From a virus, in the IMG/VR virus record IMGVR_UViG_3300017774_006254, positions 64,001-128,000 of that record: a DNA stretch of 64,000 nt. One strand, given 5' to 3'. Shown here piece by piece: positions 5,912 through 55,642 of this stretch. The stretch's first letter is position 1, and the number at the start of each line of letters is the position of its first letter. The notes under the pieces are model-generated. The model was not told where the DNA came from, did no database searches, and was given only the letters and a program-made list of their open reading frames with translations. A program made the translations under genes and the position numbers.

Positions 5912-6375
5912 GGGCCAAGAAGACCGCCACGCAAGCCGTGGTCGATGAAACCTCTGCGTCCGCCTGGAAGGCGCTCCTGGAGGCCGCGCAAGCGGTTGAC
6001 GCGATGGTCTGGCGCGCAGAAGGCCAGGGGTCCGGCTGCGAAGTCCAGGCAGCCACCATGCGCCAGCACCTCACCAAGGTTACACGCCTCACCCCGGCAT
6101 CGACGGTAGAGAGCGCCCGCTCCGCCGTACCACCCAAGTGGTCCTTCATGGACTACAAAAAGGCCGCGACGGTCTGCGTCGAGCTGCGACTCATCGTGCT
6201 CGAAATGTCGTCGAAGCTTGTTGGTATTTGCCCCGAGATGGACAAGGTTCGGGGAGACGCTCTGCTGAGCGTCGTCGCGAGCACTGAGGCCCTGGGGCCG
6301 TACACAGAGCTGTGCAAGAGAGAGCGTTCTTTCGAACGTCTCGTTGGAGACGAAAGCGATCGCCGAAGATCCTGA
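5899..6375 (+). CDS. hypothetical protein
   Basis: GTG start after GAGGAG; operon packing. Confidence 0.55.
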   Translation: MSVVRAKKTATQAVVDETSASAWKALLEAAQAVDAMVWRAEGQGSGCEVQAATMRQHLTKVTRLTPASTVESARSAVPPKWSFMDYKKAATVCVELRLIVLEMSSKLVGICPEMDKVRGDALLSVVASTEALGPYTELCKRERSFERLVGDESDRRRS

Positions 6376-6410
6376 ATGTGAATGAACCGTCGACAATCGA
6401 CGGAGAAAGC

Positions 6411-7088
6411 GTGACAAACGTGAAGAAGAACAAAGAGCCGGTACAAGTTGGTCGTTCGTTGGTTACATGCGCCGGAAGCACTGACGGGAAAAAGCACTAC
6501 GTCTGCTACTACGCCGATGGGACCGTGACGTGTGGATGCGGAGAGAGCGCCATCGAGAGCGCTGCCCGCGCCGGAGCACTCGTGCGCCTTGGAGGATCGG
6601 AACCAACAGAGCGAACCTGCGCGTCACTCGCCTGTTTCCTGATGTCCACCCTCCCCGGACTGATCGGTAGCGATGACTGGCAAAATTCAGAAGGGTGGAA
6701 GAGCTACAGCTCTCTCGCGGTGACGCAGGACGTCTACGGCTTCATCCAGAGCCAAGACCCACGAGCGAAAGCTCGCTCTGTCGCAACGAAGGAGATCTTG
6801 AAGTGCAAGAGCTACCGCGATGGGATGACGCGAGACGACTTCGCCGAAGAGCTGCACTTCAGCAACGCCGACCCGTCTGAAGGAACTCAAGTCGCCGCGT
6901 TCTCCTCAGACACATGGTCCATCCCACTGGCCACCGACTGGCTGGAGAGCGTCGCCAAGAAGGGCATGGCTCTGTTCAAGGGCATGTTCGTCGTCGCCAT
7001 GGAGAACGAGTCGCTACTGGCGATCGCTGGCTCCAACGACGAGGGTTTTGTCATTAAGCGGTTTTCGCGCCTGGAAGGTGCGCAGTGA
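6411..7088 (+). CDS. hypothetical protein (SWIM-like Cys motif)
   Basis: GTG after GGAG; HYVCYYADGTVTCGC; exact start uncertain. Confidence 0.5.
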   Translation: MTNVKKNKEPVQVGRSLVTCAGSTDGKKHYVCYYADGTVTCGCGESAIESAARAGALVRLGGSEPTERTCASLACFLMSTLPGLIGSDDWQNSEGWKSYSSLAVTQDVYGFIQSQDPRAKARSVATKEILKCKSYRDGMTRDDFAEELHFSNADPSEGTQVAAFSSDTWSIPLATDWLESVAKKGMALFKGMFVVAMENESLLAIAGSNDEGFVIKRFSRLEGAQ

Positions 7089-7618
7089 CCTCCGCTTTGT
7101 ATCGCGCGTTTTTGATCGGCTCGCTTCGTTTGAACGAGCGGGGCCAGATTGCACTAACGCAGGTGCACGTCAGTCACAGGCCTACTCATATGAACTACGC
7201 GAGAGCTAGTGTTCTTCGTGTCAAGAAAGAAGACGTGACAGAGTTCGATCTACTGGAGAGTCCGGAGTTCAACGACTTTGAGGAGGCCAAGCTCTGGATC
7301 GAAGGGGCGTACAAGGGCCGCTTCCCGAAGCTTGCGAGCGCTCTCTCGATTACCGAGAGCAGTGACGTGGCGAGCCAGGCGAAAGCGCAAGCCCCGAGCA
7401 AGCCGAAATGCCGCGAGTGCGGTGGTACCGACCTTGAATGGCAGTGCATGCAGTCGAATCGTGGCGGAGCGGTGAATGGACGCCTGCGACTGAACGAAGT
7501 GAGCACGGTGTTCGTGCTGTCGTGCACTGAGTGCTCAGAAGACGTGCGCAGGGTGAGCGGAGATGACGTGGCGGCGTGGATGACGACTGCGAAGTTGTCG
7601 CCTGAGGTGGCGACGTGA
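7085..7618 (+). CDS. hypothetical protein with C-terminal Zn ribbon
   Basis: GTGA overlap; CRECGG...CTECS. Confidence 0.6.
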   Translation: MTSALYRAFLIGSLRLNERGQIALTQVHVSHRPTHMNYARASVLRVKKEDVTEFDLLESPEFNDFEEAKLWIEGAYKGRFPKLASALSITESSDVASQAKAQAPSKPKCRECGGTDLEWQCMQSNRGGAVNGRLRLNEVSTVFVLSCTECSEDVRRVSGDDVAAWMTTAKLSPEVAT

Positions 7619-7944
7619 GCCTGATGTCCGTGGATATGACCAACGCGAAAGAGCGCGACGCCCGCCTTCCAGACGGCCGCCTGAGCCACGACGGACATCC
7701 GTTCCGCGCCCCCATTGTCTTCAAGGCGTCATGGAGAAACGCCCAAGGGCACGCGATGACCGGTCGGTTGCGCACCAACCGAGTCCAAAAGCGCTGGTGG
7801 TACGAAGACGGCTACGACGAAAGCCCAAGCTTCTGCGCCAACAGGGCTTCAACTAGTTCGCCACGCATCGCTCAGGGATGGGCAGATGCAATGGCTGTGA
7901 TGAGTCAAACAACAGCACCCCAGATCACCAAAGGTAAGTCATGA
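7615..7944 (+). CDS. hypothetical protein
   Basis: 4-bp overlaps at both ends. Confidence 0.5.
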   Translation: MSLMSVDMTNAKERDARLPDGRLSHDGHPFRAPIVFKASWRNAQGHAMTGRLRTNRVQKRWWYEDGYDESPSFCANRASTSSPRIAQGWADAMAVMSQTTAPQITKGKS

Positions 7945-8348
7945 AGGTCAAAATCACCGAGTATCGCGGGTTCCTGGCGATCGAAGCTTTGGAACCTGAG
8001 ACGCCGCATCCCGACTGGGCGCCCATTGGTCCCGGCCGCTTTGGTTGCGTGGTCAACAACACGAAGACGAATCTCGGCATCAGCAAAGAAGCGATGCTCG
8101 TGCTCTCCAAGTTGCCCAAGAGCAGAGATTCGATCGGGAACATCATGTGGTTCACCACGAAGTCGCCCTCGGGGGAAGCGGAGGGCGCGGCCTTCGGTTG
8201 GATGGGCGGCGCGCTGTGCATCATCGGGCCTGACGCAGACACAGACCGCTCCACACGGATGCACCAAGGCCAGCACATCGACATCCCCAACGACACCTCC
8301 GCAATCCTGCGTGATGCCATCGATCTGGATCTGGAGAAGAAGCCATGA
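7941..8348 (+). CDS. hypothetical protein
   Basis: ATGA overlaps at both ends. Confidence 0.6.
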   Translation: MKVKITEYRGFLAIEALEPETPHPDWAPIGPGRFGCVVNNTKTNLGISKEAMLVLSKLPKSRDSIGNIMWFTTKSPSGEAEGAAFGWMGGALCIIGPDADTDRSTRMHQGQHIDIPNDTSAILRDAIDLDLEKKP

Positions 8349-8815
8349 GCAAGATGATTACACTCCTCGACGGGTTCTCCCCGTCTGACATCCAGAAGAC
8401 CTGCATACTTCTGGCGTGGAGGGCTCGCGCAGAGCTTTCAATCGCCGAACAGAACCCCGACATGATCTTGCCGATCAGAGGGGGTCACGTGTCCAACGCG
8501 ATCTCAGCGCTGAGCGCCGCGATCGACCTCATCGGCCCGCAGAAAAAGATGGACCGTGCGCGCATGCTGCTGGACGTCGCCAAGTACGCCAGCGAAGCCA
8601 GCGAAGCTCACCTCAACGTCGCGGGCAACGCCGCGTTCCTCGTTCCCTCGATGCCCGAAATGGCGAAGAGGGCCGAGCACGCCCTTCTCATCTTCACGAA
8701 GTCGACCGAAGCCGCTCGCAAGGACGCGCATCGCGCGCTGGCCGAGCTGTGCGAGCTGTTCCCCGAGTCGGTCCCTGTCGAAGCACACCCGGAAATCGTC
8801 CAGGAGAACGTCTGA
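8345..8815 (+). CDS. hypothetical helical protein
   Basis: ATGA overlap upstream, TGATG coupling to thyX. Confidence 0.6.
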   Translation: MSKMITLLDGFSPSDIQKTCILLAWRARAELSIAEQNPDMILPIRGGHVSNAISALSAAIDLIGPQKKMDRARMLLDVAKYASEASEAHLNVAGNAAFLVPSMPEMAKRAEHALLIFTKSTEAARKDAHRALAELCELFPESVPVEAHPEIVQENV

Positions 8816-9705
8816 TGTACGCCGCGAAAGTTCTAGCCGACTCAATGGCCCCCAACGGTGTCCGCCTCGTGACCATGGAAGTCACGTTCCCCCGCTTCAT
8901 CCTGGCGGAATTCAATACGCATCGAATGTTCTCGCGGAACAGCGCGTCGAGCCGCGCTATCCCACTTGAGCGCCGCATCGCTCAAGTGCGTGCCAACCCG
9001 TTCGTTCCAGAAGCCTTCGGCGCCAACAAGAGCGGGATGCAGGCTGGCGCCGACCTCGGCGGCTGGAAGGCAGTCGTCGCACGCTGGCTCTGGCTTCTGG
9101 CCGCGAAGTTCTGCGTCTTGATCGCTTGGGGCATGAGCCACCTGGGCATTCACAAGCAGCACGCCAACCGCGTCATCGAGCTGTGGGCTTGGCATACCGT
9201 TGTCGTGTCGGCGACGGAGTGGGAGAACTTCTTCCGGCTTCGCACTCACAAGGACGCGCAGCCCGAGATGCAGATCGTGGCGAAGATGATGCGCGACGCG
9301 CACACGAGCAGCGTCTCCCTGCTACTCAAGGAAGGCGACTGGCACCTGCCCTACGTCACGAGCGACGAGAGGTCTTCCCTGTCGGAGAGCCAGGAGGTCG
9401 CGCTCAGCGTGGTGAAGTGCGCAGCTGTTTCTTTCGAACGGCAGAACACAGAGCGAACTCGCGAAGCTGTCACAGCGCGCCACGACGCGATGATCAAGTC
9501 GGCTCACTGGTCGCCGTTCGAACACGTTGCGCAAGTGGGCTCCGAAAGAGACGTGGACAAACTTGGCCTCTTCAAGATGGGCGAGGACGATTTTATCCCC
9601 GAGTTCATCGGCAACTTCCGGGCGCCGTGGGTCCAGTATCGAAAGAGGTTTCCAAACGAAGAGGTCTGGGAGCATCTGGAGTACGTGCCGGGGGCAAGTG
9701 TCTGA
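8815..9705 (+). CDS. thyX: flavin-dependent thymidylate synthase
   Basis: EFNTHRMFSRNSASSRAIP, FFRLRTHKDAQPEMQ, HWSPFEH motifs of phage ThyX. Confidence 0.9.
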   Translation: MYAAKVLADSMAPNGVRLVTMEVTFPRFILAEFNTHRMFSRNSASSRAIPLERRIAQVRANPFVPEAFGANKSGMQAGADLGGWKAVVARWLWLLAAKFCVLIAWGMSHLGIHKQHANRVIELWAWHTVVVSATEWENFFRLRTHKDAQPEMQIVAKMMRDAHTSSVSLLLKEGDWHLPYVTSDERSSLSESQEVALSVVKCAAVSFERQNTERTREAVTARHDAMIKSAHWSPFEHVAQVGSERDVDKLGLFKMGEDDFIPEFIGNFRAPWVQYRKRFPNEEVWEHLEYVPGASV

Positions 9706-10078
9706 CGTCGAAAGCGAACCGAAGCCGTGCGCCAAGTGTCCTTATCGCAAAGACGCCCCTCTCGAACTCTGGAGCCCAGAAGAGTTCCAGAACGTGCTCG
9801 AACAGGACAAAGCGATGGTTGGGCATGTGTTCGGCTGTCACAAGTACATCAAGAGGAAGCTCGCTGGCGAAGCGACTCCTCTCTGCGCAGGGTGGGTCCT
9901 CGACCAACTCAAGCGCGACCTTCCGTCGATTGCTCTGAGACTTTTGATCGCAAAGAGCGACAACCCTCAGCAGTCGTTTGCCCAGTTGCAGTCGGTTTCA
10001 TCGGACGGCCTTGACATGTACGAAACGATCGAAGACATGTGCGCCGCAAACGGAGTTGAAGATGACCAAGATCCCTGA
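9698..10078 (+). CDS. DUF6283-like Cys-rich protein
   Basis: PCAKCPYRKD...FGCH...CAGW motif set. Confidence 0.6.
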   Translation: MSDVESEPKPCAKCPYRKDAPLELWSPEEFQNVLEQDKAMVGHVFGCHKYIKRKLAGEATPLCAGWVLDQLKRDLPSIALRLLIAKSDNPQQSFAQLQSVSSDGLDMYETIEDMCAANGVEDDQDP

Positions 10079-10706
10079 AATGCCTCCCATCTACACGTTC
10101 ATCGGAACCAAGTTTCGCTTTCTCGACGCGGACCCGAAGGACGTCTCGCTCATCGACATCGCCCAGTCGCTTGCCATGACGTGCCGCTACAACGGCCACA
10201 GCCTCCGCCACACGTCAACGGCAGCTCATTCCGTCCGCGTTGCAGAGCGAGCGCTCCAGGAAACCGGGGTACCCGGTATCGCCTGGCTCGCGCTCATGCA
10301 CGACGCTCCCGAGGCGTACGTCGGAGACATTCCCACGCCACTCAAGCACGCGATGCGCATCGTGTGTGGGGAAAAGAAGAGCCCATTCGACACCATCGAA
10401 GACGCGGTCACCGCTGTCGTCGCGCAGGCGCTTGGACTCGACGAAAAGATCACCGGAAGATACTCGCTCAGGGAAGCCTGGGCCATTGTCAACGGTCTCG
10501 ACTACGAAGACTTCATCGCCGAAGCCAGTGTTGAGTGTCGTCAGCCAAAACGCCTGGTCCCTGAAAAAGCGATCTACCCCACCGGCCACACCGCCAAGCA
10601 AGCGCGAGCGCTGTGGCTACGTACGGCTGCCAAGTACGCCCCCACGACCGAGTTGCTTGTTCGCGTCCGAAGTGCCCAAGCGTACTTCCGAGGAGCGCAT
10701 CAATGA
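10062..10706 (+). CDS. HD-domain 5'-deoxynucleotidase-like hydrolase (YfbR/YfdR-like)
   Basis: DIAQSLAMTCRYNGH, STAAHS, LMHDAPEAYVGDIPTPLK. Confidence 0.85.
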   Translation: MTKIPEMPPIYTFIGTKFRFLDADPKDVSLIDIAQSLAMTCRYNGHSLRHTSTAAHSVRVAERALQETGVPGIAWLALMHDAPEAYVGDIPTPLKHAMRIVCGEKKSPFDTIEDAVTAVVAQALGLDEKITGRYSLREAWAIVNGLDYEDFIAEASVECRQPKRLVPEKAIYPTGHTAKQARALWLRTAAKYAPTTELLVRVRSAQAYFRGAHQ

Positions 10707-12487
10707 CCTTCCGTGTCTACAGGTACGGCTTGCAACCGCCCATCGAGAACGCGGAACTTGTTCGAAGCCAATTTGTCCTGGCTCACAAGTACCAGAACAA
10801 GCTCATCGAGATCGAAATTCAGCAGCGCGCAGAGGTGCGTGCTCTGTCTGCCAGGCACGGCGTCATCCCTGAGCTTGAAGCCAATGCCAAGGCTGCCGTC
10901 GACAGCGTCGACAAGCTCTTGGCAGAAATCAGGGTCCTGAAGTCGGCATCGAGAACGCGGGTCGTGCCGCAGGAACTCAAAGACCAGCTCGCCGCCGCGA
11001 AGGTAATCAAGAAGGAGACGCGAAATGCTCTCCAGGCGGCGCGCTACGAGACGCGCTCCGACACCGCGATCGCAGCCATCAGCAAGGAGATTCAGGAGAA
11101 GTACCTCGCAGCGCGCAAAGCAGCTCGTGCCGCTAACGGTCTCTACTGGGGCTCCTATCTGCTGGTCGAAGACGCAGACGACGCGCGGCGCAAGATGCCG
11201 TTCTACAAGGGCATCGAGCCGAATGACCCCCGCTTCGTGCGCTGGTCGGGTGAAGGTGCTGTCGGAGTGCAGATGCAGAAGGGGCTCCCGGTGGAAAGTA
11301 TCTCCACATCAAGGCACATTCGCATCGACCCCCGTCAGGCTCCTCCAGGAGTTGACCCTGCAAGCAAACGCTCCGCGAAGCGCTCGTACTGCACGCTCCG
11401 AATGCGCGTCGAAACGAATGATGACGCCACCAAGACACCGGTGTGGGCAGCTTGGCCTATGGTGTTCCACCGGCCCCTGCCAGAAGGCGGCGTGATCAAG
11501 CGAGCAGCCGTGCACATGAGGAAGATCGGCCCGCGAGAAGAGTGGTACGTGCTGTTCTCGGTCGATTTCAGCGGGGCTCCCGCGACTCCAGCTACAACAG
11601 AGCGAGTAGCCGTTGACATCGGATGGCGAGTGACTGAGGACGAAGGCATCTGCGTCGCCACTTGCGTCTCAGACAGCGGAGAGATCACGCGACTCGTCTT
11701 GGACAAGAAACTGCTGTCTCAGGCGAAAAAAGCGGAAGAGCTTCAGTCCATCCGAAAGAGGAACTTCAACGAAGCCATCGTAGCGCTCGTGAGCCAAGTT
11801 CACCTGGCAACCAATCCACCGGACGGGAGCGCGCCCACGATGCTGCTGCCAGAGTGGTTCCCTACGAACCTGATGCAGTGGAAGTCGGAGCAACGCTTTG
11901 CGGGCCTGGTGCACCAATGGGCGACCAATCGTTTTGAAGGCGACGAAGAGATCTTCACCGCCGCAGAAGCATGGCGCATCCACGACCGACACCTGTGGGA
12001 CTGGGAATGCAACCAGAGGTCAAAGGCTCTCCGTCACCGACGAGAGGTGTATCGAATCTTCGCGGCTCGACTTTCAAACAAGTACGCGCAGATCGTCCTC
12101 GAAGACTTCGACCTCCGGAAGGTGGCTCAAGTCCCAAGCGTTGAGAATCAAGTCGGCGACAACGAGCAGGCTCGGGCGAACCGACACTCGGTCAGCGTGA
12201 GCGAGCTGCGGCTCTGCCTGGTCAACAAGTTTGTAGACCGTGTATCCATCGTGCCCGCCGAGTTCACAACCAAGAGGTGTGCTCACTGTGGCCATCTGAA
12301 CACCTGGGACCAGGCGAAGTACGTCAGCCACACGTGCGCCAGCTGCGGTACCACTTGGAACCAAGACGAGAATGCGGCGCGCAACATGCTCGCTTACGAG
12401 AGCCCGCCTGTTGAAGCCAAAGCCCCATCCAAGGGTCGATGGATCAAAGCTAAGGAGGCGAAGAGGGAGCGAGAGGCGGCCGAGTAA
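10703..12487 (+). CDS. cas12m: Cas12m-like (type V-M/V-U1) RNA-guided effector, TnpB/Cas12 RuvC family, 594 aa
   Basis: N-terminal VYRYGL, long coiled-coil REC insertion, GLYWGSY, GAVGVQMQ, RuvC-I VAVDIGWR (D305), QWKSEQRF, RuvC-II VLEDF (E467), CxxC..CxxC zinc finger, RuvC-III QDENAARN (D555); AGGAG RBS and ATGA overlap. Confidence 0.8.
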   Translation: MTFRVYRYGLQPPIENAELVRSQFVLAHKYQNKLIEIEIQQRAEVRALSARHGVIPELEANAKAAVDSVDKLLAEIRVLKSASRTRVVPQELKDQLAAAKVIKKETRNALQAARYETRSDTAIAAISKEIQEKYLAARKAARAANGLYWGSYLLVEDADDARRKMPFYKGIEPNDPRFVRWSGEGAVGVQMQKGLPVESISTSRHIRIDPRQAPPGVDPASKRSAKRSYCTLRMRVETNDDATKTPVWAAWPMVFHRPLPEGGVIKRAAVHMRKIGPREEWYVLFSVDFSGAPATPATTERVAVDIGWRVTEDEGICVATCVSDSGEITRLVLDKKLLSQAKKAEELQSIRKRNFNEAIVALVSQVHLATNPPDGSAPTMLLPEWFPTNLMQWKSEQRFAGLVHQWATNRFEGDEEIFTAAEAWRIHDRHLWDWECNQRSKALRHRREVYRIFAARLSNKYAQIVLEDFDLRKVAQVPSVENQVGDNEQARANRHSVSVSELRLCLVNKFVDRVSIVPAEFTTKRCAHCGHLNTWDQAKYVSHTCASCGTTWNQDENAARNMLAYESPPVEAKAPSKGRWIKAKEAKREREAAE

Positions 12488-12663
12488 TGGGCGCACGTGC
12501 ACGAGCATGGGGGACGTCTCCTGCCTGGTGGTAGTGCGGCAAGTGCAATCGCGAGCGCGATCACAAGAACTTCGCCAAAGCAGGACAGCCAGTTCCCACC
12601 GGCCGTATCAAAGGAAAAGTCACGAGTCCGCACGTGCAGTACAGTCGTGACCATCCGACGTGA
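12487..12663 (+). pseudogene. interrupted paralogue of the Zn-ribbon gene at 61908-62171
   Basis: reads SPAWW*CGKCNR...AGQPVPTGRIKGK versus SPPCWKCGKCNR...HGKPTPTGRIEKK; in-frame TAG at 12532, early TGA at 12661. Confidence 0.6.
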
Positions 12664-12775
12664 TCGCAGCACTTACACACTTCTGCGCGCACCTTTCATT
12701 CGTTCGGATGTTCCCCGACGAAGCAGTCAAGTCAGGTCTGTTTTCCGAAATGCAACTAGATCGCTGGAGAAAACG

Positions 12776-13021
12776 ATGAACACAACAAGACCATACGTGG
12801 TGAAGTCCGGAGACACACTGTCTCGAATTGCCACGGACCATGGCTTGTCTTGGCGTGCTCTCTACGACTCACAAGAGAACGCCGACTTTCGAGCGAAACG
12901 TCCGGACCCTCAGAAAATCTTCGTTGGCGACGTCATCAACATTCCAGAGAAGAATGTAGCTCTCCGCAGGCTCGGGACGGTTGCCGAGCTGGACCCGTTG
13001 TGGTCGCCGATCAAGGTCTAA
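12776..13021 (+). CDS. LysM-domain protein (81 aa)
   Basis: YVVKSGDTLSRIA...NADFRAKRPDPQKIFVGDVINIP; GGAG RBS. Confidence 0.85.
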   Translation: MNTTRPYVVKSGDTLSRIATDHGLSWRALYDSQENADFRAKRPDPQKIFVGDVINIPEKNVALRRLGTVAELDPLWSPIKV

Positions 13022-13035
13022 CCGCAGTACACGAA

Positions 13036-13310
13036 CTCGACGCGTCGAGGCATTGGTTGGTGGACAAGTGGCGCTCGCGTCCGAGGCGAGACAGATCCAA
13101 ACCGCTTGGAGTATCCAAGACCCGAGGACAAGCTTTGAAGGCCGCTCGGCGCCCAGCCGAGACCGTAACGGAGTTTCGGCGACAAAGACGAGACGAGATC
13201 ACCGTCCGCAAAAGCAGCTCGACGCTCCAAGTCGAGACCTGGATGCTCGCTGTGCAAGCGCAATGGCATCTCGGCGCCCAGCCGAGACGAAAGGATCGCA
13301 CACGAATGCG
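13036..13310 (+). CRISPR. degenerate structure-conserved CRISPR-like mini-array (6-7 hairpin+AC units)
   Basis: hairpins ending (G/A)AGAC at 13092, 13121, 13163, 13194, 13238, 13288; CTCGGCGCCCAGCCGAGAC identical at 13145-13163 and 13270-13288; intergenic, about 550 bp downstream of the cas12m-like gene. Confidence 0.65.
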
Positions 13311-13339
13311 CCTTGACTGGCCAACTGTTACACTTGGCC

Positions 13340-14152
13340 ATGTCTTCACGTCAGCGCAAAACCAGCCGAAATCCCGAGTCCAAAAATCGTCGCGTAACGA
13401 TTAGACCAGGGCTAATCTCTGGGCCTGGATTCAAAGCCACCGCCTACAAGGGATCCGATCCCACCTTCAAAGGTCGTATCGCAGTTCTGCGTGGCTCCGG
13501 GATGACTGAGTTCCCCAACGTGCAGCAGCTCACTCGCATTCTGCGCGAGGAGGGCATTTCACCTTCCGCCGCTGAGCAGGCCTTTGGCTCGAAGAAGATG
13601 AAGAAGAACGGCGGCGCGGGGAAGACCGTTCGCCATGGCTACCTCAAGATCGGCGGCATGGAAGCAGCCGAGTACAAGGGTCCCGAGAAGAAGCTTACTG
13701 GCAAGATTCACATCTCGGCCCCCGGCATCAGCGCTTACAAGACCGTGAGCGAATTCCAGCAGATCGCCCAAAAAATCGGCATCGACATGGAGGACCTTGT
13801 CGCGGCGTTCGGGCACATGTTCGAACTCGAAAAGCCAGAGAAGATCGACGCCAAACTCACGTACGGACCGAAGCGCATGAAGCTTGGCCACGTTGGGCCT
13901 CGCGGCGTGAGCTTGGGGACGAAGCAGGGAAGCCTAGTCTTGCTCGATAGCCAGAGCGGTCAGATTGTCTGGGGCGTCATGGAGGAGTCCAAGGCAATTC
14001 GCAACATGGCGACGAACCGTGAAGTCTCCGTCGCAAGCGTGTTTACCAAAGCGAAGTCACTGAGGATTCCAGCACAAGCAGTCTACGACGCATTCGGGCA
14101 CATGCTGAGTGCCGAGGAGCGTCGAAAGCTTGTTACTTCATTCCATCGCTGA
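13340..14152 (+). CDS. basic protein with three internal domain repeats
   Basis: repeats end ISPSAAEQAFG, IDMEDLVAAFG, IPAQAVYDAFG; TGnTACACT 5 nt before ATG. Confidence 0.65.
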   Translation: MSSRQRKTSRNPESKNRRVTIRPGLISGPGFKATAYKGSDPTFKGRIAVLRGSGMTEFPNVQQLTRILREEGISPSAAEQAFGSKKMKKNGGAGKTVRHGYLKIGGMEAAEYKGPEKKLTGKIHISAPGISAYKTVSEFQQIAQKIGIDMEDLVAAFGHMFELEKPEKIDAKLTYGPKRMKLGHVGPRGVSLGTKQGSLVLLDSQSGQIVWGVMEESKAIRNMATNREVSVASVFTKAKSLRIPAQAVYDAFGHMLSAEERRKLVTSFHR

Positions 14153-14168
14153 CGTCTGTCGAAAGTAG

Positions 14169-14197
14169 TTGACGGCGAGATCCGCGAGAACTACTTT
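14169..14197 (+). promoter_or_regulatory. sigma70-like promoter, likely leaderless transcript
   Basis: TTGACG, 17 bp, TACTTT, then ATG 14204 6 nt later with no SD. Confidence 0.65.
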
Positions 14198-14203
14198 CGA
14201 CAG

Positions 14204-14545
14204 ATGACTCTGAAATCCCGGCTCAGTGCCCTAGCTGAAAAGTGCGCTGAGTCCATGCATCGGGCTGCCTGGGAAGCTCTGACTCGAACGACGGCTTTCC
14301 GTCAGAAGTTCGACGCGGTAGCCGACTCTCTGTCTCAGATCGAGATTGCGATTTCGAACGTGGAGGAAGGCGTTCTGAATCAGTTTCCGGCGAACGAACA
14401 CCGTGCCGATCTGTTGGAAGCTCTCGCGCTAATTCGCAAGACGCTGAACCTCACAAGGGAGGCCGTTGCTGGTGTTTCCGGTGAGTCGAAAGTTGTTGAC
14501 ACAGAGAGTGCTCCAACCTACAAGGTTTCGAATGAGCCTCAGTAA
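14204..14545 (+). CDS. hypothetical helical protein
   Basis: ORF directly after promoter. Confidence 0.6.
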   Translation: MTLKSRLSALAEKCAESMHRAAWEALTRTTAFRQKFDAVADSLSQIEIAISNVEEGVLNQFPANEHRADLLEALALIRKTLNLTREAVAGVSGESKVVDTESAPTYKVSNEPQ

Positions 14546-14744
14546 AAAGTTCATCGAATCCGGGCTGTTGAGCACTGGCGCCGTCGCAAAGAGGTGCGGT
14601 GTCGACCGGAGTACACCGTTCGTTTGGATCAAGTCCAAGATGCTCAAATCAACGAAAGTTGATGGCTACATTGGGGTCAAAGAGAGTGACCTCAAGAAGT
14701 TCCTTTCGATCTACAACGTGAACGGAGAAAAGAAGAATGAGTGA
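14532..14744 (+). CDS. excisionase/MerR-like HTH DNA-binding protein
   Basis: LLSTGAVAKRCGVDRSTPFVWIKSKML winged HTH pattern. Confidence 0.75.
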   Translation: MSLSKKFIESGLLSTGAVAKRCGVDRSTPFVWIKSKMLKSTKVDGYIGVKESDLKKFLSIYNVNGEKKNE

Positions 14745-15990
14745 TTCCGAATTGGTGACTACAACGCCGCTTACGGCGGCTGAGCTTGAGTCGTATGGCG
14801 TCATCATGCCTCTCGCGAGTGCTGCGCAATTGCGTCGAGTCCACGCTGAGAAGCAGGCAATGTACGCGGCGATCCTCGACGAGAACGACTACATCTACGT
14901 GGTCGCGTTTCAGGAGGGAGGCAAGGCAAAGCAGAGCGTCTATGCTCTCAAAGAGCACGCTGAGAAGGCCGCCGACGCATACAAAGTGAAGGTCATGGCG
15001 AGCCCGAAGAAGAGTGGCATCACGAAGCTCGCTGCCGCTCTTGGCATCGAGTGCAGGCGCATTGACGGCGGCGGAGTGCCAAAGGAGCCAGGAGCAAATC
15101 ACTCCTGGGTTCTTTACGAGGCCAAACACGCGAAGACGGGGCGAACTGCCGAGGGCATCGGATGGTGCGACAAGTCCGAGCAGGGCGGGAAGATTGCCAC
15201 GCACGCGATGCTCGGGACGGCGGACACGCGCGGATTCAACCGTGCGGTCTTGCGCCTCTCAGGGTTCGGAAACGTGTCAGCTGAAGAGGTTCTTGGAGGC
15301 GAGGACACCATGGTGCAGTTCTCCGACCCAATCGCAACTTCACAGCAGAAGGCTGCCGCTCTCCCCGCGCCTTCCGATGAAAGTGTCATCATGGCGATGA
15401 GGGGTTGGGCGGAAGAACTCGCTCGGCGCCCTGAAGGGCTTCAGCCAGCCGCACAGCAGTCCACAAGGGCTGCGAGAGAGATGAGGGCCAAGGCAGCCCG
15501 TGGGGCTTACACGGAGGCCCGTGTGATGGGTTCGATGGGATTTGCGTGGGACGGCCCAGCTCAGGACTCACCAGCTCACGAGCTGTTCAACGTTGAACCG
15601 CCCACCATCACCGTCGACGATGTCACGCGCTCCGCCAAGCTCATCGCTGCCACGGAGACCAAGCCTGTGGGCTGGGATCTGAGCGGGATGTCCAACGCTC
15701 ACGAAGAGAACCGCACGGAAGAGAAGCCGATCACGCGCGAACAAGGCGCCGCTGGCGTTCCTGCCGCGAGCGTTCCGCTTGCTGCCACTCATGGCGCGGG
15801 CTCCGACACCATCAGCCAAGCTCAGCAGAAGATCCTGAGCGCCGCATTGCTCGGGCGACTCGGAACACGAGAAGCGTGTCAGGCGTGGCTGATGACACAT
15901 GCAAACGTCGAACGAAGCGCTTTCGTTCGTCAAAACCAGTACGACGCTCTGCTGAAGTTGCTGGAAGAAGGAGACAAGAAGAATGCCTGA
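14737..15990 (+). CDS. putative single-strand annealing (Rad52/Sak-like) recombination protein
   Basis: KKSGITKLA and ADTRGFNRAVLRLSGFGNVSAEE motifs; next to an SSB-like gene. Confidence 0.45.
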   Translation: MSDSELVTTTPLTAAELESYGVIMPLASAAQLRRVHAEKQAMYAAILDENDYIYVVAFQEGGKAKQSVYALKEHAEKAADAYKVKVMASPKKSGITKLAAALGIECRRIDGGGVPKEPGANHSWVLYEAKHAKTGRTAEGIGWCDKSEQGGKIATHAMLGTADTRGFNRAVLRLSGFGNVSAEEVLGGEDTMVQFSDPIATSQQKAAALPAPSDESVIMAMRGWAEELARRPEGLQPAAQQSTRAAREMRAKAARGAYTEARVMGSMGFAWDGPAQDSPAHELFNVEPPTITVDDVTRSAKLIAATETKPVGWDLSGMSNAHEENRTEEKPITREQGAAGVPAASVPLAATHGAGSDTISQAQQKILSAALLGRLGTREACQAWLMTHANVERSAFVRQNQYDALLKLLEEGDKKNA

Positions 15991-16537: not shown

Positions 16538-17383
16538 ATGAGCCCAGTCTTCTTGATCGACATCTCCTCGTACCTGCATCGCGCAATGCACGTGATTCAC
16601 GGAAAGCTTGCCTCTGAAGCCGATCCGTCAGACATCTCGTTCACCGTTCACGCAGCGAACATGCTCGCCAACACCATGTTTCGACTTCACATCGAAAGAA
16701 TGGCCGTGGTGTTCGACTCGACCGAGCCATCAGCTCGGTGCCAAGTCTACCCGCAGTACAAAGCCGACAGGAAGCCTCACACTCCTGTGTTCGCGGCCCA
16801 GATGCCTCGGTTCATGGCAGCCCTGGCTGACGTCGGAGTAAGCGTCTTCGAAGAACCTACCTTCGAAGCCGACGATATCATCGCGACTCTGGTAGGAGAT
16901 GAAAGAGTTCCGTACTCGATCGTGTCACACGACAAAGACCTGCTTGCTCTTGTCGACGATGCGTCAGAGGTGGCCGTCTACAACCCAACATCTGACAAGT
17001 GGCACCGCATGGATGACATCTTCTCCAAACTGGGAGTGTTTCCATGGCAGTTGCATGACTACATGGGACTAGTCGGAGACACGTCAGATGGAATCCCAGG
17101 CGTTCCTGGGATTGGAGCCAAGACCGCTTCAGCTCTCGTGGTGAAGTACGAAACGCTAGAACGTATCTACAGCGCGGAATGTCGCGAGCTTGTAGAAGAT
17201 GATCTGTCCAAGAAGCAGTTCTCTTCGCTTATTGAGAGCGAGGAAGTGGCTTTCTTGTCCAGGAGTCTAGCCAAGCCAATCATCTGCCCCGAGTTGATTA
17301 TGGTTGGGCATGGGCCCCTCTCTGCGCCGAGTCCCGACAGGATACGAACGGCCGTACAAGACTACGAGAGGAGGAATCGCTGA
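16538..17383 (+). CDS. 5'-3' exonuclease / flap endonuclease (Pol I N-terminal-like)
   Basis: LIDISSYLHRA, YKADR, FEADDIIATL, DKDLL, GDTSDGIPGVPGIGAKTA (H3TH). Confidence 0.92.
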   Translation: MSPVFLIDISSYLHRAMHVIHGKLASEADPSDISFTVHAANMLANTMFRLHIERMAVVFDSTEPSARCQVYPQYKADRKPHTPVFAAQMPRFMAALADVGVSVFEEPTFEADDIIATLVGDERVPYSIVSHDKDLLALVDDASEVAVYNPTSDKWHRMDDIFSKLGVFPWQLHDYMGLVGDTSDGIPGVPGIGAKTASALVVKYETLERIYSAECRELVEDDLSKKQFSSLIESEEVAFLSRSLAKPIICPELIMVGHGPLSAPSPDRIRTAVQDYERRNR

Positions 17384-20300
17384 TGCCTTTGGTGCGGACG
17401 ACCCACAACTTCGAACTTCCGATGACGCCTCGGAGCCCAGACGTTCGTACCTGGACGCCTCAGATGGGCACGCAAGACCTCGTGTACTCGCTTGCTGTTG
17501 GTGCTTGTGCTCCGACAGCCGAGACACAACTTCAGCGGCGCGCTGTCGAGGCCGTGAGCGTTCCATTGGCCAAGTCAGGAGGCGGCTCTGTCGTCACGAT
17601 GAGACCATACCAGAACGAGGCCATCGAAGCCGTTTCAGCGGCCTGGAAGAGTGGTTCGAAGTCGCCATTGATTGTCTTGCCGACGGCTTGCCACCGTGCC
17701 GGACAAGGCGTCCTCATGATGGATGGAACCGTTAGAAACGTAGAAGACGTGCAAGTGGGAGATGTCCTGCTCGGGCCAGACTCCAGGCCTCGAAATGTCC
17801 TCAAGACGCACCGCGGGTTCGGTCAGATGTTTGAAGTCATCCCTGTAAAAGGAAAGCCCTTTGTCGTGAACGGCGAACACGTGCTCACGCTGTACCGAAC
17901 CCCCCAGAAGCCCAACGCTAAGTACCCAAGTCAAAGATCGGCCATCGTTGACGTGACGGTGAATGATGTACTGACCAAGTCAAAGACATGGCGTCACATT
18001 CACAAACTGATCCGAGCGAGCGATGTAGAGTTTTCCGTCAGAGAGGCCCCGGTCATTCCTCCGTACTTCCTCGGCCTTTACATCGCAGACGGCTCCATGG
18101 CACAGCCCAATCAAGTTGCAGTGTCCAAGCCGGACCCGGAGGTAAGAGCTGCCTGCATGGAGCTTGCGGAAAGCTGGGGACTCAACATGCGAACGGACGT
18201 CGGTGGGAGTGGTTGCCCTTCGCATCACCTCTCAGGACTCACGTCTCCAGGAAAGACTCGCGGAGACAACCATATCCTGACGGAACTTCGCAAGCTTGGC
18301 CTCATGAACATTCCCTCCGAGGAACGCTTCATACCAGACAGTTACAAGTTCGGGTCGATTGCGGTGAGAAGAGAGCTTCTGTCCGGCTTCTTAGACGGAG
18401 ACGGACATCTCCATCGAACTGACTACGACGTCATTACGAAATCGAAGCGACTGTCCGATGACATCGTCTTCGTAGCTCGGAGCCTGGGGCTTGCTTCGTA
18501 TTCCGCTCCTTGCGTGAAGGGGTGCCAGAACGGGTTCATCGGGAATTACTTTCGCGTGACCGTATCCGGGGAAACCTCAAAACTGAAACTGAGGATACCG
18601 CGCAAGCAAGCGCCTCTCAGAGCCCAGAAGAAGAATCCTCTCGTTGCTGGATTCAGCGTGAGAAGACTTGAAGAGGAGCCGTTCTTCGGCTTCACACTTG
18701 ACTCAGATCACCGATACCTGCTTGACGACTTCACGATCACGCACAATTCGGGAAAGACGATCATCTCCGCCGAAATCATGGCTCGCACGTACGCGGGCTC
18801 TGGAGAGAAGAGCCTGTTTATTGCGCATCGTGAGGAACTGCTCACTCAAACGGTCGACAAGGTAAGGCTAGTGAGTCCCAACACTCGCGTTGGGTTGGTG
18901 CAGGGGAAGATTGCAGAGTTCGGCCGCGATGTGACCGTCGCCTCGATTCAAACGGTCGGCCACAGTAGCAAGAAGAAGCTGCGTGAACTCATCGACGGCG
19001 GACCGTACAGAACCATGATCATCGATGAGTGTCATCACGCTACGGGCAAACAGTATCGCGATGTCATCTCCGCGTTGATGGAAGCGAACCCCTCGATGCT
19101 GATCATGGGAATGACAGCAACACCCGGCCGGTCCGATGGCCTAGCTCTCGATGCCGTGTTCGACTCGGTGGCATTCGAGAAGGACATCTTCTCGATGATC
19201 CGCGAGGGATGGCTCGTTCCTCCCGTTGGCTTCGCGCAGAAGATCGATGTCGACCTCGACAAGGTTGCAACAGGTAACGGTGACTACGTATTGAGTCAGC
19301 TGTCGAAATTGATGAACACGCCCAAGGTCAACCGCGCAGTTGTCGAAGCGTGGCAGACGCATGGGCTCGACCGGAAATTCATCGCCTTTGCTTGCGACGT
19401 CGCTCACGCAAAAGCCCTAGCGCAAGAGTTCAACGACAGTGGATACCCCGCAGCGGCCGTCGACGGGAAGATGAAGAAGACGGAACGCAAGAGCATACTC
19501 ACTGCATTCCGCGAAGGCGCATTGAAAATCCTCGTGAACTGCAACATCTTGATCGAGGGGTACGACGATCCAAGCGCCGAAGGAGTCCTCTTCGCGCGCC
19601 CGACACAGAGCCAGGGCCTGCACATCCAGTCGCTCGGAAGAGGACTTCGCCTGTTCCCTGGGAAGACAGAGTGCCTGGTGATCGACTGCGTTGGAAACAG
19701 CGCGAAGCACCGCCCAGTGCAGCTCGCTTCCCTCGTCGGCTTTGATCCGCAAAGGAAGTACAAGGGCTTCGCCGGGTTCGGAAACGAGGAAGAGGAAGAA
19801 ACTGAGAAGCCAGCCGAAGTAGGCGTCGACGATGCTCGACTTGGTCAAGCGTCAGAACTTGGATTCGGATTCGCTCCGCTGAAAAGCACGTACCAGTGGA
19901 GAGAAACTTCTTTGGGGTGGATCATCCAGATACCGAAGATCGGCTACTACCTAGTCGCATGGAGCGACAAGACCAAGGTGATGGCCACGATTCGCTTCTA
20001 TGACCAAAGAAAAGGGCGCAAAACAGACAAGCCTCGCGAGGTGACCCGAATGCCGATCGAGTTCGACATGGCCTATGGGCTTGTTGAAGGAGAACTTGAC
20101 CGAATGTTCCGCGCCAAAGACTTGCGACGCGAGGAGAAGAAGGACGAGACAGGCGCAGACCTCGTCTCGTTCGTCCCGCTCGATGATGGTCTGGATGAAG
20201 ACCTGTCCGTCAGAGAAGAGCAGATGCTCAAGGACGCCGAGTGGCGAAACAAGCCCAAAACAGAGAAGCAGCGAGAGTGCCTCGAATCGCTGGGCGTGAA

Positions 20301-20505
20301 GATGAAGACGATGCCCGAGCTTGCTGGAGAAGCCAGCGACCTAATCACCATTATGCGCGTTGAGAAAGAGCTGAAGATGCGCGTGCCCGCGACGCTGAAG
20401 CAGCTGAACTTCCTTCGCTTCCACGGTATCCCGTTCTCCGAAGACATCACCAAGGGCCAGGCCGCCAAACACATCTGGCTTCATCGAAAGGCGACTGAGG
20501 TATGA
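17383..20505 (+). CDS. SF2 DEAD/DEAH-box helicase precursor containing an intein
   Basis: Q motif MRPYQ, split Walker A LPTA|SGKT, IIDECHH, GMTATP, EGYDDP, QSLGRGLR. Confidence 0.92.
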   Translation: MPLVRTTHNFELPMTPRSPDVRTWTPQMGTQDLVYSLAVGACAPTAETQLQRRAVEAVSVPLAKSGGGSVVTMRPYQNEAIEAVSAAWKSGSKSPLIVLPTACHRAGQGVLMMDGTVRNVEDVQVGDVLLGPDSRPRNVLKTHRGFGQMFEVIPVKGKPFVVNGEHVLTLYRTPQKPNAKYPSQRSAIVDVTVNDVLTKSKTWRHIHKLIRASDVEFSVREAPVIPPYFLGLYIADGSMAQPNQVAVSKPDPEVRAACMELAESWGLNMRTDVGGSGCPSHHLSGLTSPGKTRGDNHILTELRKLGLMNIPSEERFIPDSYKFGSIAVRRELLSGFLDGDGHLHRTDYDVITKSKRLSDDIVFVARSLGLASYSAPCVKGCQNGFIGNYFRVTVSGETSKLKLRIPRKQAPLRAQKKNPLVAGFSVRRLEEEPFFGFTLDSDHRYLLDDFTITHNSGKTIISAEIMARTYAGSGEKSLFIAHREELLTQTVDKVRLVSPNTRVGLVQGKIAEFGRDVTVASIQTVGHSSKKKLRELIDGGPYRTMIIDECHHATGKQYRDVISALMEANPSMLIMGMTATPGRSDGLALDAVFDSVAFEKDIFSMIREGWLVPPVGFAQKIDVDLDKVATGNGDYVLSQLSKLMNTPKVNRAVVEAWQTHGLDRKFIAFACDVAHAKALAQEFNDSGYPAAAVDGKMKKTERKSILTAFREGALKILVNCNILIEGYDDPSAEGVLFARPTQSQGLHIQSLGRGLRLFPGKTECLVIDCVGNSAKHRPVQLASLVGFDPQRKYKGFAGFGNEEEEETEKPAEVGVDDARLGQASELGFGFAPLKSTYQWRETSLGWIIQIPKIGYYLVAWSDKTKVMATIRFYDQRKGRKTDKPREVTRMPIEFDMAYGLVEGELDRMFRAKDLRREEKKDETGADLVSFVPLDDGLDEDLSVREEQMLKDAEWRNKPKTEKQRECLESLGVKMKTMPELAGEASDLITIMRVEKELKMRVPATLKQLNFLRFHGIPFSEDITKGQAAKHIWLHRKATEV
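17689..18747 (+). mobile_element. intein with LAGLIDADG homing endonuclease (353 aa)
   Basis: starts at Cys (CHRAGQ), block B NGEHVL, FLGLYIADG and LLSGFLDGDG, ends THN followed by Ser, inserted in Walker A. Confidence 0.93.
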
Positions 20506-43042: not shown

Positions 43043-43116
43043 GCTCCCGTAGCTCAGTTGGATAGAGCAGTCGCTTCCTAAGCGAAAGGTCCCAGGTTCA
43101 ACTCCTGGTGGGAGCG
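43043..43116 (+). tRNA. tRNA-Arg (anticodon CCT)
   Basis: acceptor GCTCCCG/TGGGAGC, D arm AGCTCAGTTGGATAGAGC, loop TTCCTAA, T arm CCAGG-TTCAACT-CCTGG; no encoded CCA. Confidence 0.93.
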
Positions 43117-55245: not shown

Positions 55246-55611
55246 GGGCGTGAAAGGTGTCGACGGAGTGACTGGAGACCGTGTTGCGTGCAGGGGTTGA
55301 TCGGCTGGCCCCTATATCAAGCCGATCATCGTAGATGCGAACGAAAGCAACTACGCTCGCGCCGCGCAAGCAGCCTGAGCCGTTTGGTGAAGTAGGCGGC
55401 GGACTTCATCGGGCGTCATTTAGCCGAGGCAAGCTTGTTTTGTATCCTCAGGATTCAAGCCCAAGGCTGTTCATCTGAAGATTGGTGGAGGAGTGACCGT
55501 CACTCCCGACCGGGCCGCACCAGCTGAGAGCGGTACTCTCGAACAGGTGATACGCACGTAGACGCACGGAATTTGGCATTTCGGACCCGGGTTCGACTCC
55601 CGGCACGTCCA
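55246..55611 (+). ncRNA. ssrA: tmRNA; tag (A)ANESNYARAAQAA
   Basis: acceptor GGGCGUG/CACGUCC with G3-U wobble and A discriminator; 5' GAAAGGUGUCGAC; 3' GACCCGGGUUCGACUCCCGG T arm; tag ORF 55337-55378 after UAGAU. Confidence 0.93.
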
Positions 55612-55612
55612 T

Positions 55613-55642
55613 CGCCACCTGGAAACGGGTGGCGTTTTCTTT
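55613..55642 (+). terminator. intrinsic terminator after tmRNA
   Basis: CGCCACC-TGGAAACG-GGTGGCG followed by TTTTCTTT. Confidence 0.8.

Follow-up and report, generated by a model that had tools for sequence, protein, structure and literature searches.

The intergenic hairpins described here are probably a small, partly decayed CRISPR array of a virus's own type V-M (Cas12m) system. They lie in a window of 64,000 nucleotides, the whole stretch of DNA that was analyzed, which corresponds to bases 64001-128000 of a complete virus record of 161,502 bp with direct terminal repeats (IMGVR_UViG_3300017774_006254). Analyses of this genome established the identity of the effector, the fold of the scaffold by covariation, the spacing of the units and the absence of cas1 and cas2. 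Processing of the array, DNA binding, silencing and the nature of what is targeted are proposed below by analogy with characterized Cas12m systems.

The hairpins lie downstream of an effector gene, and the features between that gene and the first unit are as follows:

10703..12487, + strand: cas12m, type V-M effector of 594 aa, assigned by structure-database matches and Pfam, single copy
12778..13021, + strand: small LysM-domain ORF (Pfam LysM, 7e-9, inside ORF 12497-13021), between cas12m and the array
13036..13049, no strand assigned: perfect 14-nt palindrome with the stem of the hairpin family, lacking the AC tail and the 5' flank

Comparison of the 594-residue protein with the PDB identified near full-length matches to entry 23vw, "CRISPR-associated DNA-binding protein Cas12m" (E = 3.9e-81), to Cas12m2 (8hhl, E = 4.5e-32) and to a further Cas12m chain (E = 2.2e-22). 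The protein has the Pfam domain Cas12f1-like_TNB (PF07282), which is the zinc-ribbon TNB domain. The RuvC residues D305, E467 and D555 were invariant among 22 homologues, as were the four Cys/His residues of the zinc ribbon. Judged by its sequence matches, the effector is a Cas12m of type V-M, and its gene is present once in the 161.5-kb genome. Searches of the complete 161.5-kb genome for Cas1 and Cas2 families returned no matches, and the positive controls for these searches worked; the former V-U subtypes typically lack adaptation genes as well.

The hairpins occupy a 318-nt intergenic region between the end of the LysM ORF (13021) and the start of the next ORF (13340). They are oriented on the + strand, as is cas12m, and the first unit begins 581 nt past the cas12m stop codon, with one small ORF between. 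Rfam gave no match in or near the stretch, whether at gathering thresholds or at E values up to 10, and neither a sigma-70-like promoter nor a + strand terminator was found at the locus. The 318-nt region as a whole folded no more stably than shuffled sequence (z = -0.73), so the evidence for the hairpins is covariation and not energy. The palindrome at 13036-13049, which sits 14 nt past the LysM stop codon, matched only the hairpin part of our covariance model R1 (described below), on both strands, with E = 0.039 in a local search; it could represent a unit that has decayed, or an operator or other protein-binding site. The LysM ATG is separated from the cas12m stop codon by about 290 nt (12497-12777), which belong to a longer ORF started by GTG and contain a 7-bp hairpin at about 12620-12652; these nucleotides may be coding, a leader or some other RNA. 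Further downstream in the window, at 17383-20505, a helicase gene (ResIII/Helicase_C) is split by an intein with a LAGLIDADG homing-endonuclease domain.

Direct reading of the sequence placed the ends of hairpins closed by AC at 13092, 13121, 13163, 13194, 13238 and 13288. The units and the intervals between them, with bit scores and E values from a local search with model R1 (filters off), are:

13068..13092, + strand: unit 1, 5-bp stem and AC, weak pseudoknot (23.9 bits, E = 1e-5)
13099..13121, + strand: unit 2, CTTGG/CCAAG stem and AC, 6 nt past unit 1 (17.3 bits, E = 5e-4)
13122..13138, + strand: candidate guide of exactly 17 nt, the gap from the AC of unit 2 to the next model start
13139..13163, + strand: unit 3, 6-bp stem, 5-nt loop, AC and 3-bp pseudoknot (36.8 bits, E = 6e-9)
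13169..13194, + strand: unit 4, decayed repeat abutting unit 3 (2.9 bits, E = 1.9)
13195..13211, + strand: candidate guide of exactly 17 nt, the gap between units 4 and 5
13212..13238, + strand: unit 5, 6-bp stem, 7-nt loop, AC and AGC/GCT pseudoknot (32.7 bits, E = 7e-8)
13239..13263, + strand: candidate guide region of 25 nt, the gap between units 5 and 6
13264..13288, + strand: unit 6, hairpin identical to that of unit 3 (33.0 bits, E = 5e-8)
13289..13305, + strand: terminal candidate guide assigned by position, the first 17 nt past the last AC

The distances from each AC to the next stem were 12 nt (13093-13104), 23 nt (13122-13144), 10 nt (13164-13173), 23 nt (13195-13217) and 31 nt (13239-13269), exactly as given in the original prediction, and the periods of the units were 29, 42, 31, 44 and 50 nt, with stems that vary from copy to copy. 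The same prediction had offered an alternative parse using only the hairpins that end at 13092, 13163, 13238 and 13288. This was also correct: the periods are then 71, 75 and 50 nt, of which 71 and 75 nt are near-canonical. Both the six-unit and the four-unit parse stand: unit 2 was locally significant, and its CTTGG/CCAAG stem variant recurs in the larger array described below, whereas unit 4 was not significant. Unit 4 is unsupported as a folded handle, yet aligns end to end with the 36-nt repeat of a related locus (L069). The pseudoknots of units 1 and 2 are weak. Unit 3 is the best-scoring scaffold of the stretch, and units 3, 5 and 6 rank among the five best-scoring copies in the genome.

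Model R1 was built from 28 hairpin-plus-AC units and searched over the whole 161.5-kb genome. The search identified 37 matches with E<0.2, nine of which lay outside the training set, and all were confined to two clusters, with five in the stretch (+ strand) and 32 at 143682-146047 (- strand). The 6-bp stem covaries among the 28 units: 98.8% of cells were paired and 22 were changed on both sides, a result reached in none of 500 shuffles. Since the units had been picked for a stem, the pairing of flank and loop was used as a feature independent of selection. In this pseudoknot, the loop contributes its first three nucleotides, which are paired with positions 2-4 of the 6-nt 5' flank. Its key pair is C-G in 21 units, U-A in 11 and unpaired in one, and the pseudoknot pair of unit 5 differs from that of unit 3 on both sides. 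Overall, 88% of flank-loop cells were paired compared with 76% in shuffles (0 of 500 reached the observed value). Both helices also covaried across 24 distinct canonical 36-nt repeats found beside cas12m homologues (92% paired, 69 cells double-changed).

Two helices are described for the crRNA of PmCas12m, one between G(-28)-C(-26) and G(-15)-C(-17), the other between C(-23)-C(-20) and G(-3)-G(-6). In the Cas12m2 crRNA a helix joins C(-22)-C(-17) to G(-8)-G(-3), and A(-2)C(-1) come next. By sequence, the two helices of the viral units correspond to those in these solved Cas12m crRNAs, and because of this match the AC would be the last two nucleotides of the scaffold before the guide. When flank-loop pairing, a 6-bp helix and a 3' AC are taken together as the signature of a V-M scaffold, units 3, 5 and 6 carry it in full and units 1 and 2 in part, and unit 4 does not carry it. 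The loops in the stretch are 4-6 nt shorter than in every characterized scaffold, so recognition of these scaffolds by the effector is assumed here.

The other cluster of matches is the main array of this virus. It has the same scaffold, spans genome positions 143682-146047 on the - strand (L009:7682-10047), which is the local direction of transcription, and lies 67 kb away from the stretch; its 32 model matches have a median gap of 17 nt. Guides are mutually unrelated and scaffolds conserved, with the exception of one trio of main-array guides (AC ends at L009 9154, 8843 and 8624, - strand) that share their first 11 nt and then diverge. These three could have arisen by duplication of units, or could all be directed at a single target family. 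The main array is broken in three places by longer stretches with small ORFs of about 71-72 aa, two of which read across a hairpin in the same frame. A second hairpin family, GGTTCCTCAGCACC ... CTGAGGC and variants, occurs in 4-5 copies inside the main array (L009 about 8480-8520, 8880-8920, 9390-9420 and 9700-9730, - strand) and has no AC tail.

The lengths of the gaps bear directly on which units might guide. With the 6-nt flank counted as scaffold, the gaps in the stretch are 6, 17, 5, 17 and 25 nt. Of the 31 main-array gaps, 24 are 40 nt or shorter; the median of these is 17 nt, 13 of them are between 14 and 18 nt, and 16-17 nt is the commonest length. The guide-target heteroduplex in the Cas12m2 and PmCas12m structures is 17 bp, and PmCas12m has an optimum guide of 17 nt and a mature crRNA guide of ~17 nt, longer spacers being trimmed at positions 17-18. 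The original prediction held that the guides are truncated. The 23-nt distances instead comprise the covarying 6-nt flank and a 17-nt interval, which would be a full-length guide of mature size. The 10- and 12-nt distances leave 5-6 nt and hold no guide, the 10-nt gap being the 5' part of the decayed unit 4. Gaps of 5-6 nt cannot guide, as one mismatch among the first 12 nt is enough to abolish PmCas12m activity. Two 17-nt intervals and one of 25 nt would thus be usable as candidate guides. The stretch does not contain identical repeats of ~36 nt with regular unique spacers of ~30-40 nt, as characterized V-M arrays do.

From the shortness of the spacers it had also been predicted that Cas12-type guides here bind DNA and do not cut it. 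For those units that carry a guide, binding is indeed the likeliest outcome, but the reason lies in the Cas12m family and not in guide length. Pre-crRNA self-processing, a 5' T-rich PAM and DNA binding without cleavage are family traits in the literature, which covers the characterized V-M systems of Cas12m2, GoCas12m, MsCas12m and PmCas12m (PMC10442227, PMC11013384, bioRxiv 10.64898/2026.03.26.714355). For eight Cas12m orthologues studied by Bigelyte et al., DNA cleavage was undetectable and cells were protected by binding; four of these eight have an intact D-E-D triad (PMC11013384). PmCas12m and two others are also nuclease-dead. Binding without cutting is a property of the family, independent of guide length, and by analogy would extend to this protein. 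The RuvC triad is intact here, so sequence alone still allows cleavage. The length of a guide is uninformative in this system on cutting versus binding, which belongs to the effector family.

We propose that the stretch would be read as one transcript on the cas12m strand. Each good unit, of ~25 nt, would form the 3-bp flank-loop pseudoknot and the 6-bp stem, followed by A(-2)C(-1). As in characterized Cas12m systems, the effector may cut the transcript upstream of every scaffold and retain the scaffold with the ~17 nt that follow it as a guide. It would then find a DNA target with a T-rich PAM and block transcription or replication by binding, with no cut. The gaps of 5-6 nt would be repeat-to-repeat junctions that arose from decay or compaction of the array. 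A more ambitious proposal, which we put forward tentatively and regard as somewhat doubtful, is that the six-unit stretch is the smaller of two arrays in a hard-wired, multiplex "CRISPR interference" program. Such a program would comprise 35-40 guides pre-cut to 17 nt on minimal, drifted scaffolds, would silence fixed genes of the host or of rival elements during infection, and would have been built and kept without Cas1-Cas2. The drifted stems may, in such a program, protect the array from recombination.

Searches for targets were made in the virus, in related viruses and in candidate hosts. In the virus genome, 17-mers with up to three mismatches gave scattered matches only, lacking T-rich PAMs. 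Outside the arrays, the counts of guide seeds of 11-16 nt equaled those of a reversed-guide control, and no seed of at least 12 nt matched. Within 6000-15000 of the window (~7 kb on either side) no guide seed of at least 9 nt matched, which argues against autoregulation of the cas12m operon. Two 20-nt guide prefixes, one of them the first 20 nt of 13239-13263, had no exact match in IMG/VR. Comparison of both arrays with five large Cas12m-carrying viral genomes gave chance-level matches only, and BLAST of the array against the four metagenome-assembled genomes (MAGs) with the nearest bacterial Cas12m homologues (Pirellulales, Brocadiaceae, Polyangiaceae and Phycisphaerales) gave chance-level matches that were mostly GC-rich hairpins. 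Likewise, 306 spacers of relatives, searched against all loci examined and this genome, yielded only same-array duplicates and GC-rich chance matches. The original prediction had reported no self-match in the window, and this now extends to the whole virus genome, in which no PAM-consistent match rose above the reversed-guide control. Its proposed targets, host promoters or defense genes, are not borne out, since the guides had no significant match in the virus, the five related viruses or the four genomes of candidate hosts. For guides of 17 nt searched against candidate hosts, a lack of matches counts for little. The virus encodes a tmRNA (55246-55614, tag ANESNYARAAQAA) and a tRNA-Arg(CCU) (43043-43116). 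In the four MAGs the tmRNA matched only at its conserved tRNA-like end, best in Polyangiaceae with 81% over 61 nt at the 3' end, which is too little for host assignment.

Relatives of the effector provided a broader view of the arrays that accompany it. A homologue alignment search identified Cas12m homologues at 50 loci on 49 IMG/VR viral contigs. At most of these loci the densest cluster of hairpins ending in GAC is just downstream of cas12m on the same strand, and at 25 of the 50 the gene is directly followed, on its own strand, by a regular hairpin-AC array whose units recur every 61-76 nt and have a 6-bp stem and a 9-nt loop; the canonical periods of these relatives are 72-74 nt. Cas12m proteins 89% and 86% identical to that of this virus are encoded on contigs of 157,568 and 139,356 bp, and a metagenome scan found no Cas12m closer than 47% identity. 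The repeats of one viral locus (L052) and of a contig binned as Pirellulales (L069) have the stem of units 3 and 6 and a similar 5' flank. Unit 3 shares both its stem and its GAAGGCC flank with the canonical repeat of L052, and the units in the window differ from these two repeats mainly by the 4-6-nt deletion in the loop.

Several relatives also have compact or irregular arrays. In L014, L015 and L020 (L015:7050-8100) the repeats beside cas12m recur every 47-48 nt, with ~19-nt spacers and with stems varying between copies, and this type of compact array is the nearest parallel to the arrays of this virus. The array of L099 (2600-3010) has identical 36-nt repeats with spacers of 38, 28, 12, 73 and 20 nt, so irregular spacer length occurs even with intact repeats. 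At L012 there are at least four stem variants within one locus. The arrays of L014/L015/L020 and L099 are compact or irregular like those of this virus, but keep the 9-nt loop and lie directly downstream of cas12m; they are undescribed sequences and not a published family. Together, the lack of an adaptation module, the varying stems, the guide trio and the irregular arrays of L015, L099 and L012 suggest that duplication, drift and deletion, and not insertion by Cas1-Cas2, lengthen and shorten these arrays. Sequence-diverse repeats may, we infer, resist recombination, and engineered non-repetitive guide arrays offer a parallel. One complete virus of 152,857 bp (IMGVR_UViG_3300032770_000005; L013 and L042) has two cas12m homologues ~48 kb apart, with a regular array adjoining only one of them within the stretch examined.

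Much of what sets the stretch apart from a canonical array could be ascribed to decay. It might be the remnant of an ancestral array site beside cas12m from which most spacers were lost after the working array moved or grew, so that it now does little or no guiding. The two essentially spacerless junctions, the degenerate unit 4 and the weak units 1 and 2 are consistent with this, as are the far larger and better formed main array and the LysM gene that parts the stretch from cas12m, unlike in relatives; spacerless repeat junctions are also present at the array ends of L013 and L017. We nevertheless think this reading unlikely, as random decay would not be expected to leave two gaps of exactly 17 nt, the length typical of the main array, and as three units have scores near the top for the genome. 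It is less probable still that the units are scaffold-only RNAs, acting as Cas12m-loading decoys, as Racr-like mimics that soak up host Cas12m, or as cutting sites that punctuate a polycistronic transcript. Such a role could apply to units 1 and 3, whose handles are followed by 5-6 nt gaps that cannot guide; phage RNA anti-CRISPRs made from solitary repeats are known (PMC10651486), and hairpins of the main array flank small ORFs. However, the virus encodes an effector itself, the gaps of the two arrays are mostly grouped around 17 nt, at which a guide is functional, and the guide sequences are diverse, as spacers are.

Regulation by partial pairing is a further candidate, in which crRNA-like RNAs of the Cracr or mini-array type would repress the virus's own cas12m operon or promoters of host cas or defense genes; this is what the idea of the original prediction looks like in a form already known. 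Documented examples are viral Cracr arrays, by which Cas proteins are reprogrammed for binding without cleavage (10.1101/2024.10.29.618823), and regulatory mini-arrays with degenerate repeats are common beside cas genes (10.1101/2023.03.03.530964). The lack of any guide seed match of at least 9 nt in 6000-15000, and genome-wide seed counts no different from the reversed-guide control, make this reading very improbable; on the host side the searches covered the four candidate genomes. We give almost no credence to hairpins unrelated to CRISPR, whether terminators, REP-like elements or operators of a DNA-binding protein. In favor of such elements, the hairpins are short, GC-rich and intergenic, and there is a perfect palindrome at 13036-13049. 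Against this, no T tracts follow the hairpins on the + strand, and the hairpins occur in two clusters only, each on the transcribed strand, and are not dispersed. They have a fixed orientation, an asymmetric AC tail and a covarying pseudoknot, are homologous to repeats beside cas12m in dozens of other loci, and have no Rfam match. REP and terminator elements were rejected on the clustering, the strand, the asymmetric tail, the pseudoknot and the homology to cas12m-linked repeats. A coding repeat was also rejected, as the periods are not multiples of three. The reading that we prefer remains a small, partly decayed type V-M array.

The biology of Cas12m itself is already known. If the units do guide, natural CRISPR arrays can be far more compact than the textbook form, and less repetitive, with a scaffold of ~25 nt and a guide of 17 nt, and it would be the fold of the repeat that is conserved and not its sequence. 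Standard CRISPR finders need near-identical, regularly spaced repeats and would miss such arrays, so virus-borne systems of this kind may be under-counted. The arrays could also be a natural template for short, recombination-resistant multiplex arrays in Cas12m-based gene silencing, and they raise the question of how a guide set is acquired and kept up in an element with no adaptation genes.

Comparison with known systems places the arrays of this virus closest to type V-M, with which they share a homologous effector, the scaffold topology (pseudoknot, 6-bp stem and AC end) and the lack of an adaptation module. The 17-nt guide fits the 17-bp heteroduplex, and by analogy PAM-dependent binding without cleavage would be expected. 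Characterized V-M arrays have identical 36-nt repeats with 9-nt loops (8 nt in Cas12m2) and spacers of ~30-40 nt that are trimmed to ~17 nt after transcription. In this virus, by contrast, the unit is 25-28 nt, loops are 3-8 nt, stems vary, and spacers are already 17 nt or almost absent; the carrier is a 161-kb virus, and 67 kb separate the two sites of the array. In the literature searched, no V-M arrays were found described whose repeats are shortened and drifting and whose spacers are 17 nt long. The MvCas12m of myxophage MV-1, which a September 2026 preprint presented as the first Cas12m of a phage, is likewise virus-encoded with an intact D-E-D triad (D305/E463/D555, compared with D305/E467/D555 here), and its locus lacks cas1, cas2 and cas4; protospacers were not found for it either (bioRxiv 10.64898/2026.09.14.751636). 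Unlike the arrays described here, that of MV-1 directly adjoins the gene and is built from a single consensus repeat with eight ordinary spacers. With 50 loci in IMG/VR, virus-borne Cas12m is far commoner than the MV-1 preprint implies.

The stretch also resembles two classes of RNA that act on Cas proteins. Viral Cracr arrays and mini-arrays (10.1101/2024.10.29.618823, 10.1101/2023.03.03.530964) similarly have compact, degenerate, multiplexed units with which a Cas protein binds and does not cut. These RNAs, however, take over a Cas protein of the host and recognize promoters of cas or toxin genes by at least 9 PAM-proximal bases, whereas here the effector is viral and no such match was found. 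Like Racr (PMC10651486), the units are repeat-derived hairpins on a phage genome, some of them with no usable spacer. A Racr is solitary and mimics host repeats, giving aberrant complexes with the Cas proteins of the host, whereas the units of this virus are arrayed, are mostly followed by 17 nt of unique sequence, and are accompanied by a viral effector.
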